From NCBI GenBank assembly GCA_964454175.1, contig CAYVSA010000090.1, positions 1-6,569 on the forward strand: 6,569 bases of DNA, in the 5' to 3' direction. Made by a program: the position numbers. The DNA comes from an uncultured Pseudomonadota bacterium. Lineage in GTDB: Bacteria; BMS3Abin14. Of this stretch, positions 1-3,000 are shown piece by piece (positions within the stretch are counted from its first letter, which is position 1; each line of letters opens with the position of its first letter).

Positions 1-3000
1 GACCCGATCCCGGTGATCCTGCCGCACGTTTCCGGCTCAGATGCCGCCGGCGAGGTAGTTGCCGTAGGTGAAGATGTAAGACACATAAAGGTGGGTGACC
101 GCGTCGTTTCTCACTCCAACATGTCGTGTCGTGTGTGCAGCGCCTGTACAGCCGGCCGAGAGTTCGATTGCGCCAACCGCACCATCTGGGGATTCCAGAC
201 CGGTCCTAACTGGGGAGGCTTTTCCGAGATCACTCATCTACCAGAGGTCAACGTGGTCAAGATCCCCGAAGGGGTCAGCTACGAACAAGCAGCGGCAGCT
301 TCAATGACCCTGTTGACTTCATGGCACATGCTGGTGGGCCGGGCAAAGATCGTCCCGGGACAGACGGTACTTGTGATGGGCGGCGGCTCGGGAGTCGGCA
401 GCTTCGCCATACAGATAGCCAAGCTGTACAACTGCAGTGTCATCGCCACGGCCAGCCCCGACAAGCTGGACAAGTGCATGGAGCTCGGCGCAGACTACGC
501 CGTAGATCACAGGAAAGATGACTGGCATAAGGAAGTACGGGGCATAAGCAAAGAGATCGCCAAGGCAGCCGGCACGGCACCCGGGATCGACGTCTCATTT
601 GATCACATCGGGGAGACCCACTTTAACAAGCAGCTTACGCTGCTGAAGTTCGGCAGTACATTAGTCTCCTGCGGCGCTACCACCGGATATAATGCCAAAG
701 TGGACCTGCGCCACATCTTCTTCAAGGGCATCAACATCCTGGGTTCTACCCAGGGCACCCGGGCAGAGCTGGAAGAGGGTTTCAAGTGGATGGCCAAGGG
801 TAAGATCAAGGCGATTATCGATTCGGTCTACTCCTTCGAGCAGGCCGCCGAAGCGCACACAAAAATGGCTACCGGCAAGGGGCTTTTCGGCAAGATACTG
901 ATGAAGCCAAGCGTCTGACCTGACGTACTGATTATCGCATATGAAACAAAACGCCTCCTGAGAAGGAGGCGTTTTTGTATTTCGGTGTCAGAGCAAAACA
1001 TAAAAAAGGTGTCAGAGCAGGTACACCAACTTTGAAAACCCTGTCAAGTAGAGCTGTTTCGGTAACAAAGAGCTTACTTCGATGGTTGTAAAAATACCGA
1101 AACTAAGCCATCAGGCCCAAAAATTCTTCTCTAGCACTATTTGCTCTGACACCTTTTCAGCTTCAGGACCCTTTACCCCATATCTTCTTAAGGTACTGGT
1201 CCCGGCCGGAGCCGAAACGGTAATATTTATACCTGATCGGGTTCCTTTTGTAGTAGTCCTGGTGATAATCCTCTGCCGGGTAGAAGGTTCCAGCCGCGGT
1301 TATTTCGGTCACGATAGGCGCACCGAACCTTCCGGACTCATCCATCACCTTTTTGGACTTCTCGGCCAGTTTTCGCTGCTCCTCGCTGTTATAGAAAATA
1401 CCCGATCTGTACTGACTCCCGACGTCGACGAACTGCCGGTCCGGTGTCGTCGGATTGATCTGGCGCCAGAATACCTCGAGGAGCTTTTCGTAGGACACTT
1501 TTTTCGGATCGTATAACACCTTAACGGCCTCAGCATGCCCGGTACCACCTGCGGAGACCTCCTTGTACGTCGGGTTTTCCTTGGTTCCGCCAATATAGCC
1601 AGAGGTGGTTGAGATGACACCATCGAGTTCATCGAAGGGGTGCTCCATGCACCAGAAACATCCGCCCGCAAAGATAGCTACTTCATGTTTTTCACTGTCC
1701 ATCCCGGGCTTCATCATAACCTCCCTGGCCCCTGCGCTCACTACCGGAAAGATTCCGGCTACCAGTATGAATGCCACAGCGACTAAAAGAATTATTGATT
1801 TTTTCATGATCCACCAATCCTTTACTATATCAACATCAGGCTCAGGGCTCACCGGCCGTTCCCCTGTATGTTTTCTCCTGTATGAGGATCTGCTCCATTT
1901 CCTCAACGGTTATCTTCTCCTTGTCAAATGTAACCACGTTTATCTCACGGCGCCCGCTCCAGCCGTTTTTCACATCGATTATACCGGGCCGCCCCTCCAG
2001 GGCAGCTTTTCCCACATCGTATCAGGCCACGTAAAATGTGGCCTTGCCGCTGGCAGCACCAAGGGCAGTGCCCGCAAGCATCAGAAATGCCGCAAAACCA
2101 ATGACAATTAGTTTAATTTTCTTCATGGTTGTGTCTCCTGGCCAGAGGTTAAAGTGCCTTCCCGGTTCACCCTTTTCTTCATCTGCCCTCAAACAGTCTC
2201 AACAGCAATTTGCCTGATCTTTCAGTAAGTCCCAGCTCCGGGAGTTCAGACACCAGCTGATCATAGTTCCCGTTCCCACCCAGGTACCCGTTGACACGCG
2301 CAACTGCAGTTGAGTTAACGAAGTCGGAGATACGGGGATAGATGGAACTTAACTCCTCGAAAATTACCCTGTTGTTCCTGGCCGAGTACTTCTGGTGGTA
2401 ATCCTCGGCCAGATTGAAACCTGTATAGGGCGCAACGTCCGTATAGATCTTTCGATCCAGTTTCTCCGCCAGATCACTTTTAACCATATCGGCTTCCCGC
2501 TCCTGCTTATCGTCGTGAAAGAATATTGCCGACCGGTACTGCACCGACCAGGAACGTTTAGTGGGGCTGTGGCTCGCAAAAAATATTTCCAGGAGCTCTT
2601 TGTAGGTAATTCGGGAGGGATCGAAATCTACCTGAACCGTCTCGGAGTGCCCCCCAAGGCTCCTGTAGGTCGGATTCTTCTTACTGCCACCGGAATAACC
2701 GACCCGGGTTCTGATAACACCGTCAAGGCTCCCGAACCGGGAGTCAGGACCCCAGAATCAGCCCAGGGCAAAGGTTGCGGTCGCGACCGTTTCGTAAACC
2801 CTGGAGTCGATGGCGGGTAAAACATGCTGTTTTTTCAGTGCTTTGGCAGTCATCTGATGGTCCCCTTCCTGCGGTGTCAGAGCAAATACTTTAGGTGTCA
2901 GAGCAAATGTCTGGTTTTGTGATGTCCCGGCTCGTCCGGGGCCCGACTCGAGGGAGTGAGTGAAAAGCAGGCCCGCAAGCGCCATTAGAACTACAACAAG

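Follow-up and report, generated by a model that had tools for sequence, protein, structure and literature searches.

Two kinds of described domain stand closest to the protein analysed here: the catalytic core of the methionine sulfoxide reductase MsrA, and the HMA domains represented by MerP, CopZ and the N-terminal domains of CopA/ATP7 (PF00403). In MsrA, the Trp of the GCFW motif lines the methyl pocket, the sulfoxide is bound by Tyr82, Glu94 and Tyr134 (E. coli numbering), and the C-terminal half of the enzyme completes the substrate site. The Glu of the HxE motif we take to be the active-site Glu94 of that numbering. Enzymes of the CFWC type carry their own resolving residue, the second Cys of the motif. 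Dedicated reductants for Msr domains are represented by Neisseria PilB, whose N-terminal thioredoxin domain presumably serves the Msr domains fused to it. The selenocysteine (Sec)-containing MsrA of Clostridium oremlandii (CoMsrA) dimerises via its catalytic residue in turnover and is then resolved by glutaredoxin (PMC4479559); the reductant of CoMsrA is a Sec-glutaredoxin.

We compared these systems with a small gene in a 6,569-nucleotide stretch of DNA (the window, C90:1-6569) from an uncultured Pseudomonadota bacterium of the lineage BMS3Abin14. A preliminary description had read this gene as encoding a 94-aa signal-peptide protein with an in-frame TGA at codon 35, and translation of 1845-2126 on the minus strand reproduced that reading. 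Under table 11, the gene is broken into ORFs of 56 aa and 57 aa. The features of the window are as follows.

1845..2126, minus strand: coding sequence of the family gene, 94 aa, translated with TGA as Sec (U); family profile match at E 6.6e-31.
1842-1844, minus strand: TGA stop codon of the family gene, from the translation.
2022..2024, minus strand: predicted selenocysteine codon TGA, codon 35, the sole U in the 94 residues, read from codon conservation, Cys codons in relatives and the Sec machinery (all given below).
2052..2126, minus strand: putative signal peptide of ~25 codons (KK, hydrophobic core, ALGA), judged by eye from the translation.
2135..2139, minus strand: Shine-Dalgarno sequence AGGAG, 8 nt 5′ of the ATG, read from the sequence.
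1988..2006, minus strand: SECIS-like hairpin with a 7-bp stem and the 5-nt loop UGGAG, starting 15 nt 3′ of the UGA (alignment A3, columns 22-28 pairing with 34-40).
2182..3021, minus strand: predicted exported Sec-MsrA with the motif GUFWG, Sec codon at 2758-2760 and TGA stop at 2179-2181 (PF01625, E 2.6e-42; N-terminal signal/anchor and linker like its relatives).
1166..1807, minus strand: predicted exported Cys-MsrA of the GGCFWC type (PF01625, E 8.2e-68; TIGR00401, 215.7 bits).
3503-4228, plus strand: OmpR-type response regulator (Response_reg and Trans_reg_C).
4239-5705, plus strand: sensor histidine kinase (HisKA and HATPase_c).
5897..6532, plus strand: MsrB with a twin-arginine-like signal (SRRRFLF), 1-Cys type with Thr at the resolving position (PF01641, E 2.6e-53; TIGR00357, 197 bits).

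The N-terminus of the family protein looks by eye like a classical signal peptide, and the AF2 model is far less confident there (pLDDT 51-57) than over the domain that follows (97-98). We infer that the protein is exported; its sequence supports a small exported protein with one selenocysteine.

Whether the TGA is truly decoded was assessed from the codon column across the family. A codon-neutral TGN scan of genome contigs retrieved 80 loci, nine of which were set aside as chance matches by reading the flanking peptides, without a formal test. In all 71 family loci that were kept, the site column reads TGA and both halves around it are kept in frame. These counted loci come from related species, so that their number overstates their independence. 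One carrier locus (L056) is recorded as Desulforhopalus sp. IMCC35007, a cultured organism. Among 16 genomes of the window's phylum, the TGA is kept in five of five carriers, the same count as obtained previously. In a second phylum, a profile-based sample of 401 genomes gave 15 matches, comprising 12 with TGA, one with Cys, one with Ser and one cut by a contig end.

The preliminary description had also held that the family contains Sec wherever the codon can be read and that Cys never occurs. This generalisation is refuted by DNA and protein data: the Sec column reads TGT or TGC in three loci (L147, L148 and L149) and TGT in a fourth (L170), Cys forms account for 42 of the 65 full-length representative protein clusters, and a single locus, L171, has a Ser form. 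The Cys-form clusters stem from automatic gene calls, and conversion of U to C is not their source. The earlier all-Sec picture can be attributed to a sampling effect. On a quick tree, Sec and Cys forms are intermixed, with 18 changes of which at least three are forced.

Machinery for Sec insertion is visible in the genome, in the case of SelA in part. A tRNA-Sec, already part of the preliminary description, was recovered again at 74.1 bits (gathering score 47); SelB (363.6 bits) and SelD both exceed their cut-offs, the latter being of the Sec type with a TGA of its own. For SelA, the last 40 positions can be seen next to selB, where the gene is cut by the end of contig C66.

Bacterial SECIS elements lie at a consensus spacing from the UGA and present a G in the apical loop. 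A SECIS-like hairpin had been proposed downstream of codon 35 with double-sided changes in only one of its seven pairs, and the alignment makes a stronger case than that: five of the seven pairs show double-sided changes, and 88.2% of 525 cells pair. None of 500 shuffles equals the alignment score, and pairing at control positions slid along the alignment never exceeds 51.6%. Within the stem, third-base entropy is 0.00-0.59 bit, versus 1.56-1.97 outside it. At Leu43, for example, the codon is CUG in 71 of 75 sequences and UUG in the other four, leaving G as the third base in 75 of 75, and the third base of Ala42 is C in 69 of 75. The stem core is gone in three of four Cys forms. Folded alone, the window sequence is not significant (z -1.05; 33 of 200 shuffles fold equally well), so it is the alignment, with its covariation and frozen synonymous sites, that backs the predicted hairpin.

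These observations also bear on the possibility that TGA-35 is a true stop and that what lies on either side of it is a disrupted gene or a pair of chance ORFs. Splitting of the frame under table 11 is what such a reading predicts. Against it stand the in-frame halves in all 71 loci, the existence of Cys homologues, hairpin covariation with frozen synonymous sites, the Sec machinery, and an AF2 model in which both halves are needed to build one domain; we consider its chances close to nil. Judged at the sequence level, the family gene is a real selenoprotein gene, with UGA-35 predicted to be decoded as Sec with the aid of the downstream hairpin.

We then considered what the mature protein resembles. 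The AF2 model repeats the confidence and geometry noted previously, with pLDDT of at least 90 in 66 of 94 residues, elements in the order b-a-b-b-a-b, and U35 between strand 1 and helix 1. In this model, the mature domain of ~70 residues forms a minimal ferredoxin-like module whose only redox residue, Sec35, lies at the N-terminal end of helix 1. An HMA/MerP-like fold had been put forward, and to the extent that the fold is ferredoxin-like and MerP (1afi) is the top Foldseek match, this stands. It is incomplete, however, since the MsrA catalytic core is at least as close: hhalign places the family on MsrA with 97.4% probability (E 1.4e-11, 56 columns) and on HMA with 97.0% (E 1.2e-10). The two profiles, HMA and MsrA, also match one another (94.5%), so a shared fold accounts for part of both signals.

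Several comparisons connect the family specifically to MsrA. The profile alignment superposes the family Cys on the catalytic Cys, and a BLASTP comparison with the adjacent Sec-MsrA (E 5e-4) aligns U35 with U88. VIA-align to the C. oremlandii Sec-MsrA structure 4lwj gives Z 8.3 and an rmsd of 1.9 Å over 68 aligned residues, with the same geometry of strand 1, nucleophile and helix 1 and with Sec on the catalytic Cys/Sec, gap-free. The MsrA-like part of NF041383 is matched by 67 of 68 members (best E 6.8e-12), and both window MsrAs match the same region. Sub-threshold matches to Pfam PMSR occur in 20 of 68 members (best E 3e-4) versus four of 68 for HMA (best E 0.082). The family G[W/F]xG turn corresponds to MsrA GYxGG, and the HxE Glu and a (Y/F)DP-xIS block are held in common; 66 of 68 members retain Glu61, which aligns on that Glu. 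At the MsrA-type nucleophile position, the family reads U-[Y/F]-D, and 59 of 68 members have the Asp.

The differences from MsrA are equally clear. The family has ~70 residues compared with ~150, lacks a 17-residue insertion and the entire C-terminal half, and reads U-Y-D where MsrA has C/U-F-W, placing Asp37 where the GCFW motif has its Trp. The position of MsrA Tyr82 is occupied by Trp (37) or Phe (27) among 68 members. Tyr87, present in 56 of 68, is the candidate equivalent of Tyr134; its pairing with the QYRS Tyr lies in a low-confidence stretch of the alignment. The window protein has no match to PF01625, and the scores of other members fall short of its gathering cut-off.

Given this resemblance to both groups, the protein could instead be an HMA/MerP-type periplasmic binder, in which Sec35, perhaps across a dimer, would bind a soft metal or chalcogen species such as Cu(I), Hg(II) or selenide and the msr neighbours would reflect nothing beyond a shared stress regulon. 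HMA domains come first in both structure searches (Z 9.8-8.2; Foldseek MerP 1afi, E 4.4e-3), MerP leads the PDB profile search (E 2.3e-4), and the hhalign match to HMA is as strong as that to MsrA. The family has the minimal b-a-b-b-a-b size and topology of HMA domains, of which MerP is likewise periplasmic, and U35 corresponds in the alignment to the second CxxC Cys. Below-cut-off matches among the 68 members include NF041115 (55), CopZ (29) and MerP (18), and the neighbours include a YHS (seleno)protein in four loci and a DUF364 'heavy-metal chelation' protein in one. However, the first Cys of GMxCxxC and its loop are missing in all 68 members, so that of this motif a single ligand residue is left, at the second-Cys place kept as Sec or Cys. 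The family also has a 2-residue insertion at G[W/F]xG that HMA domains do not. PF00403 gives no match to the window protein and stays below its cut-off in the four members that it does touch. Among the 78 loci examined for neighbours, there is no recurring metal transporter or mer/cop gene, and the fusion partner of the family, where there is one, is Sec-MsrA rather than a transporter. We regard metal or chalcogen binding as improbable. By these comparisons, the Sec/Cys family stands between the MsrA catalytic core and the HMA/MerP domains, and the alignment of U35 with the MsrA catalytic Cys/Sec changed our view of its most plausible function.

The finding that no family library searched covers these proteins held up. 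Pfam returns no match for the window protein at E<=1, and the best NCBIfam match, NF041383, scores 33.8 bits against a cut-off of 275 and covers model positions 143-204 only. NF041383 describes a VPGUxxT thioredoxin-like (seleno)protein of type 2, and its positions ~143-204 are matched by the family just as by true MsrAs; in contrast to that model, the family has neither the thioredoxin-like N-domain nor VPGUxxT and covers just the first half of the MsrA-like domain. NF041115, the UxxU metal-binding (seleno)protein, is likewise a small HMA-like selenoprotein, but carries two Sec in UxxU where the family has a single U; it does not match the window protein at E<=1, and in the genome it finds CopA HMA domains only. 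TsoY (NF047643, a 366-position model) has no match in the genome at E<=10 and is not among the 25 families listed of the 37 matched by the 68 members. Across these searches, no Pfam or NCBIfam model reaches its cut-off for the family.

The literature gave a similar picture. The family is missing from all rows of the 119-family table of a 2026 selenoprotein review, the string 'UYD' does not occur in deep-Sep's four supplementary files, and our literature searches found no paper on such a family. OS_HP2 from the Olavius paper was weighed as a possible earlier report through that paper's Table 2 and the legends of its Figs 4-5, and may be one; the renamed families of the same paper bear other motifs according to the 2026 review table. 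We regard the family as probably undescribed. In the ESM Atlas, we encountered unnamed clusters and one cluster with PMSR on 13% of its members (score 0.79), which we treat as a lead only.

Genomic context ties the family to methionine sulfoxide repair. In the window, Sec-msrA is followed after 52 nt by the family gene and after a further 34 nt by Cys-msrA, and the Sec-MsrA contains no Cys, so that it requires an outside thiol or selenol. The proposed adjacency to msrA/msrB was borne out: a same-strand msrA and/or msrB lies within 1.8 kb in 51 of 78 loci, and in 38 of 56 where at least 1.8 kb is available on both sides, while 27 of 78 loci have no msr gene. In four loci (L037, L055, L060 and L166), the family domain is fused to Sec-MsrA. 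Both Sec residues of these fused forms are on one chain. A search of 252-2000 aa proteins in the protein collection returned no longer or fused family forms at E<=1e-5, which is weak evidence because gene callers split Sec fusions at the TGA. No DsbD/CcdA or Trx-like gene recurs in the family loci.

The MsrBs near the family all have Thr or Ser at the resolving position (40 of 40). That they might be special in having lost the resolving Cys was rejected on the basis of a control set drawn from 81 same-phylum genomes by taking the 30 best MsrB loci: the 29 readable controls are alike, with 27 Thr, one Ser and one Cys. An open frame is shared with an MsrA motif in 26 of these 29.

A two-component pair lies between the msr genes of the window, and its presence there fits a role as a redox-sensing accessory, in which a histidine kinase would be informed of oxidative stress in the periplasm through the oxidation state of Sec35. 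So do two recurrent neighbours: a hybrid PAS histidine kinase, present in 36 of 78 loci with 31 of 38 copies on the same strand and mostly directly downstream, and a receiver-cyclase in 21 of 78. Yet in the recurrent kinase, two membrane helices lie close together and a periplasmic domain is missing, the association is limited to related Desulfobacterales-like loci where it may be plain synteny, and the kinase is absent from the phylum carriers. We consider a sensing role very unlikely, if somewhat less so than a true stop.

Our main reading is that the family protein is the redox-active Sec domain of an exported methionine-sulfoxide repair module, with the selenol as its reactive nucleophile; we put the probability of this at roughly 55%. 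The protein would most likely either recycle oxidised Msr enzymes or act as a stripped-down reductase, and its redox role, partner and electron source are those that we infer from these data. Recycling of oxidised Msr enzymes by Sec35 is the sub-mechanism that we favour, tentatively and at odds well short of even. Here, Sec35 would attack the oxidised catalytic residue of an exported Msr (sulfenic acid, selenenic acid or CFWC disulfide), and the mini-domain would mimic a dimer partner, by analogy with the 1-Cys Sec-MsrA of Clostridium oremlandii. The resulting Sec35-Msr adduct would then be resolved by a further reductant.

The PilB thioredoxin domain and Sec-glutaredoxin are functional analogues, as dedicated reductants encoded with or fused to Msr, the latter setting a precedent for a selenoprotein reductant of a selenoprotein MsrA; both have the thioredoxin fold and two redox residues, whereas the family is ferredoxin-like with one. 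A narrower form of this idea, possible but less probable, is that the family supplies a resolving Sec in trans: a truncated MsrA core would dock as a pseudo-dimer partner, form a diselenide or selenenylsulfide with the oxidised Msr residue, and in this way take over the part of thioredoxin or glutaredoxin outside the cytoplasm. Several observations count against a partner role, in the recycling model as well. A single Sec is unable to finish two-electron recycling alone, and the loci show no recurring DsbD/CcdA or Trx-like gene. Sec-MsrA occurs without the family in five phylum genomes (G004, G006, G007, G009 and G011), most neighbouring MsrAs (40 of 46) are of the CFWC type, with a resolving Cys of their own, and 27 of 78 loci lack an msr gene.

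The second branch, a stand-alone stripped-down reductase, would make the protein a third catalytic member beside MsrA and MsrB, with Sec35 and Glu61 reducing S or Se species other than peptide Met-S-sulfoxide, such as peroxide, free sulfoxide, or the sulfenic or selenenic acid of a protein. The placement of Sec on the catalytic Cys and the wide retention of Glu61 fit this reading, as does the top library match, NF041383, a fusion model of the Trx-MsrA type in whose MsrA-like domain the match lies and in which such a domain would be the partner that is reduced. Fusions of two catalytic Msr domains are common, as the control MsrBs illustrate, and a sulfite-oxidase-family molybdoenzyme is the upstream same-strand neighbour in eight loci without msrA/B. 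On the other hand, Asp37 replaces the MsrA Trp, the C-terminal half is absent, and turnover would still depend on an additional reductant. We judge an independent reductase unlikely, though a more serious contender than metal binding.

Together, these findings provide a well-supported selenoprotein family that is missing from a catalogue of 119. Automatic gene calling splits or mistranslates the family, which appears in protein libraries as W forms and C-terminal fragments. As a natural minimal form, it links two large superfamilies, the MsrA core and HMA. Because the domain has ~70 residues, Cys-form relatives and at least one cultured carrier, the proposal can be tested at the bench. The family bears on an open question, namely how anaerobes recycle extracytoplasmic Msr enzymes, some of which have a single Sec and lack Cys. 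If Sec35 does act as a resolving residue in trans, it would represent a new route of Msr recycling, in which the ferredoxin-like fold would serve as a redox relay, also a new use.

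Read with TGA as selenocysteine (U), the family gene encodes a protein of 94 residues with a single U, at codon 35, and lies between genes for a Sec-MsrA and a Cys-MsrA, as the preliminary description had observed. Under translation table 11, the same gene splits into two open reading frames, one of 56 aa and one of 57 aa. The ATG is preceded, at a distance of 8 nt, by AGGAG, and residues 1 to ~25 read as a putative signal peptide. Between the msr genes of the window lie those for a response regulator and a sensor, a histidine kinase; the source assembly comprises 2.17 Mb in 135 contigs.

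Features of the window
2126-1845, minus strand: family gene, 94 residues with a single U at codon 35
2024-2022, minus strand: Sec codon 35, an in-frame TGA read as U
1844-1842, minus strand: stop codon (TGA) of the family gene, from translation
3021-2182, minus strand: exported Sec-MsrA (GUFWG), 52 nt 5′ of the family gene
1807-1166, minus strand: exported Cys-MsrA (GGCFWC), 34 nt 3′ of the family gene
5897-6532: MsrB with a twin-arginine-like signal
984-995, 1008-1019, 2873-2884, 2894-2905, 3226-3237, 3308-3319, 3463-3474: 12-mer GGTGTCAGAGCA
1142-1153, 5739-5750, 6549-6560, minus strand: 12-mer GGTGTCAGAGCA

The 12-mer occurs in the window as nine exact copies and one with a single mismatch (0.02 expected), and 45 times genome-wide against 0 for a reversed control. 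Its copies, often paired 21–24 bp apart, flank every msr gene of the window, and two fall inside the Sec-msrA reading frame, in its 5′ portion, where they encode a repeat of FALTP. The element may serve as an operator for a regulator or may be a small repeat dispersed in the genome. A separate run of 100 Ns (3347-3446), in the intergenic region 5′ of both Sec-msrA and the response-regulator gene, is bordered by 55 identical bases on both sides (3292-3346, 3447-3501); it resembles a gap that scaffolding has closed across a repeat.

The genome carries a tRNA-Sec at 74.1 bits, where the gathering score is 47. A search for selA, selB and selD, omitted from the preliminary description, recovered SelB (363.6 bits) and SelD (342.3 bits), with SelA found only as its last 40 positions at the end of a contig (G000:C66:9775-9894), directly upstream of selB. 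The SelD (G000:C134:180-1109) is itself a selenoprotein with one in-frame TGA. Scanning genome contigs for TGN, with the third codon base free, followed by YDVGKxAL returned at least 119 stretches; 80 loci were read, and all 71 that encode a family member, among the matches listed, have TGA at the site. The remaining nine (four TGC, one TGT, three TGG and one TGA) were set aside by reading their flanking peptides, which are unrelated. Within the window's phylum the gene occurs in 5 of 16 genomes, each time with TGA, repeating the earlier count. A motif-free profile sample (E ≤ 1e-8) of 401 genomes from the phylum of Desulforhopalus sp. IMCC35007 matched 15, of which 12 have TGA, one has Cys (L170, TGT), one has Ser (L171) and the remaining one is cut by a contig end.

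The SECIS-like hairpin of the window (stem GCUGCCC/GGGCGGC, loop UGGAG) begins 15 nt past the UGA and is not significant as a single sequence (z -1.05). Its covariation, claimed earlier, is borne out in a gapless alignment of 75 Sec-form sequences, where 88.2% of the 525 cells of the 7-pair stem are standard pairs and the covariation score is 0.301 versus 0.136 in shuffles, the observed value being reached by none of 500; sliding the stem by 1–3 columns lowers pairing to at most 51.6%. Both sides have changed in five of the seven pairs, rather than in only one as previously cautioned. Columns 24 and 38, for example, pair as A-U (35), G-U (19), C-G (7) and U-A (6), column 24 being a synonymous third base and column 38 a second codon position further downstream. 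Third-base entropy in the stem core is 0.00 bit at Leu43 (G in 75/75), 0.40 bit at Ala42 (C in 69/75) and 0.59 bit at Gly45, and 1.56–1.97 bit at the four-fold sites that immediately border the stem. In three of four Cys forms on DNA, a small sample, Leu is CTT and the stem core is gone; L149 retains the core.

Such Cys forms contradict the earlier picture of a family with Sec wherever its codon was readable. An exhaustive search of representative proteins gave 92 at E ≤ 1e-3; the full-length ones include 42 with Cys and 23 with Trp at the Sec site, and ~20 further representatives are C-terminal fragments beginning just past it. The Cys forms are not converted U, since exact look-up traced them to genes called automatically in assemblies from JGI, ENA and Logan. 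On DNA, a metagenome-contig scan for [W/C]YDVGKxAL confirmed three relatives, whose codons are TGT, TGT and TGC; no relative with TGG was among them. Because of this, the Trp forms in public gene calls (P0005, P0007, P0008 and 20 other protein clusters) would most simply be TGA read by a code-4-type (TGA=Trp) gene caller on short contigs. Sec and Cys forms intermingle in a rapid tree of low resolution (145 rows, 96 with Sec and 49 with Cys), which requires 18 changes of state versus a shuffled mean of 41; well-supported branches force at least three. In the one Ser form, L171 (G030:C23), S-N-D replaces U-Y-D, so that the redox residue is absent; its sister L170 has C-Y-D. L171 may be a degenerate or re-purposed copy.

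The family had been described as unlisted after a partial check of a 2026 review of prokaryotic selenoproteins; none of the 119 families/subfamilies in its Table 1, taken without the supplements, fits. That table enters MsrA as PF01625, and its HMA-like entries have UxxU, GxUC or CU motifs. TsoY, a 366-position model, gives no match. Main-text passages and four supplementary files of deep-Sep contain no such protein and no 'UYD' string, and a literature search, with subscription papers outside its scope, found no paper on the family. The Olavius 2007 paper, compared here without its alignment figure, includes OS_HP2. As review table, deep-Sep and literature searches gave no fit, we rate this a new selenoprotein family within known Sec/Cys redox proteins, with a fold unusual for that role.

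That fold (AF2 model from 68 aligned sequences, pLDDT 85.5, 66 residues ≥ 90) has the order b-a-b-b-a-b, with U35 capping helix 1.

Conservation among 68 family members
F31: 67
V33: 67
U/C35: 68
Y/F36: 66
D37: 59
G39: 67
G48: 68
G55: 62
W/F56: 64
E61: 66
T86: 64
Y/F87: 64

Repeating the library searches again gave no Pfam match for the window protein and, in NCBIfam, at best NF041383 (33.8 bits, cut-off 275). The region matched there (143-204) is the one matched by the window's two true MsrAs (140-265); 67 of 68 members match this model (best E 6.8e-12), and BLASTP against the neighbouring Sec-MsrA (E 5e-4) places U35 on U88. Pfam PMSR is matched by 20 of 68 members (best 3e-4) versus four for HMA (best 0.082). 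By hhalign, the family aligns with 46 MsrAs from the loci at 97.4% (E 1.4e-11, 56 columns): the catalytic Cys is matched by the family's Cys, GYxGG by G[W/F]xG, the HxE Glu by Glu61 and, across a 17-residue gap, YDP by (Y/F)DP. Structural matches by VIA-align include the Clostridium oremlandii Sec-MsrA 4lwj (Z 8.3, rmsd 1.9 Å, 68 residues), Treponema MsrAB (Z 7.8) and PilB MsrA (Z 7.4). A rival reading makes the protein an HMA-type binder. The likeness to HMA domains asserted earlier stands (hhalign with 11 domains, 97.0%, E 1.2e-10, 56 columns; VIA-align Z 9.8-8.2) but leaves the MsrA core out of account. MerP is the best Foldseek match (E 4.4e-3) and the best PDB-profile match (E 2.3e-4 versus 0.0097 for an MsrA), the family Cys falls on the second Cys of CxxC, and 55 of 68 members match the UxxU selenoprotein model NF041115. 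On whole genomes, the family profile finds MsrA genes via positions 3-72 and CopA HMA domains via 47-100; HMA against MsrA, as a control, reaches 94.5% over 41 columns with the Cys outside. We therefore place the family, as a minimal domain of ferredoxin-like fold, between MsrA and HMA: its N-terminal half and nucleophile are positioned as in MsrA, its compact C-terminal half as in HMA.

The adjacency to msrA/msrB recurs: among the matches listed, 51 of 78 family loci (71 + 4 + 3) have msrA and/or msrB on the same strand within 1.8 kb (msrA 45, msrB 41, both 35, Sec-MsrA 6), as do 38 of the 56 whose flanks extend 1.8 kb or more in both directions, counts that are not independent because many loci come from related species. 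These MAGs and genomes are labelled Desulfobacterales, Desulfobulbales, Desulfomonilia, Nitrospirota, Deferrimicrobia, SAR324, Myxococcota and others. In four Deferrimicrobia-like MAGs (L037, L055, L060, L166), a Pro-rich linker (PPIDA...) joins the family domain to Sec-MsrA in one natural chain with two Sec codons; at L054, family gene and Sec-MsrA are separate neighbours. The Sec-MsrAs of these fusions carry a C-terminal Cys pair, which that of the window lacks. An N-terminal signal or anchor is present in each of the nine Sec-MsrAs inspected, and those of the window's phylum contain zero Cys. Cys-free exported Sec-MsrAs (GUFWG; window 2182-3021, minus strand, L151, L155 and L088) share a conserved P-x-(I/M)-D just N-terminal to the catalytic domain, after a 40–60-residue linker following the signal or anchor.

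The family protein might instead be a sensor accessory. A hybrid PAS histidine kinase (two membrane helices, three PAS, HisKA, HATPase, receiver) occurs in 36 of 78 loci, mostly directly downstream (e.g. L052:3344-5953), and a receiver-adenylate/guanylate cyclase in 21 (e.g. L051:1576-2685); Desulfobacterales-like genomes have a conserved msrA-msrB-family-kinase cluster, including kinase plus cyclase. Other neighbours are a sulfite-oxidase-family molybdoenzyme (8/78; nearest SorA, far under cut-off), a YHS (seleno)protein (4/78) and a CMD protein (3/78).

MsrBs beside family genes lack the resolving Cys in 40 of 40 cases. This is uninformative about the family, because control MsrBs (L173-L202, the 30 best loci from 81 genomes of the same phylum) likewise lack the canonical residue in 28 of 29 readable cases, and we rejected it as a family-specific trait. 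At 26 of these 29 loci the MsrB and an MsrA motif fall in one open frame, pointing to fused MsrA-MsrB genes.

We favour a mechanism in which the mini-domain would imitate the part of MsrA around the catalytic residue and so present Sec35 to an Msr enzyme at its oxidised catalytic residue. An outside partner would be needed because the window's Sec-MsrA has no Cys; in the fusions, both Sec residues sit in a single chain. PMC4479559 offers a precedent, in that the C. oremlandii Sec-MsrA dimerises via its catalytic residue in turnover and glutaredoxin then resolves it. Against recycling, five phylum genomes have Sec-MsrA without the family gene, two-electron turnover is more than a single Sec can complete, and the family loci encode no electron source near the family gene; no DsbD/CcdA or thioredoxin-like gene recurs among the 78. 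Most partner MsrAs, moreover, are of the CFWC type (40 versus 6 UFWG), whose second Cys we take to be their own resolving residue. The protein could alternatively be an autonomous, stripped-down reductase acting on another S- or Se-oxide, so that it may serve as either recycling partner or mini-reductase. The core of the earlier interpretation is supported, with two corrections: Cys/Ser forms exist, and the domain is homologous to the MsrA core. The gene and its Sec signals, fold, dual homology, neighbourhood and fusions are established here; we infer that the family protein is exported and that Sec35 would be the redox nucleophile in an exported methionine-sulfoxide repair module.
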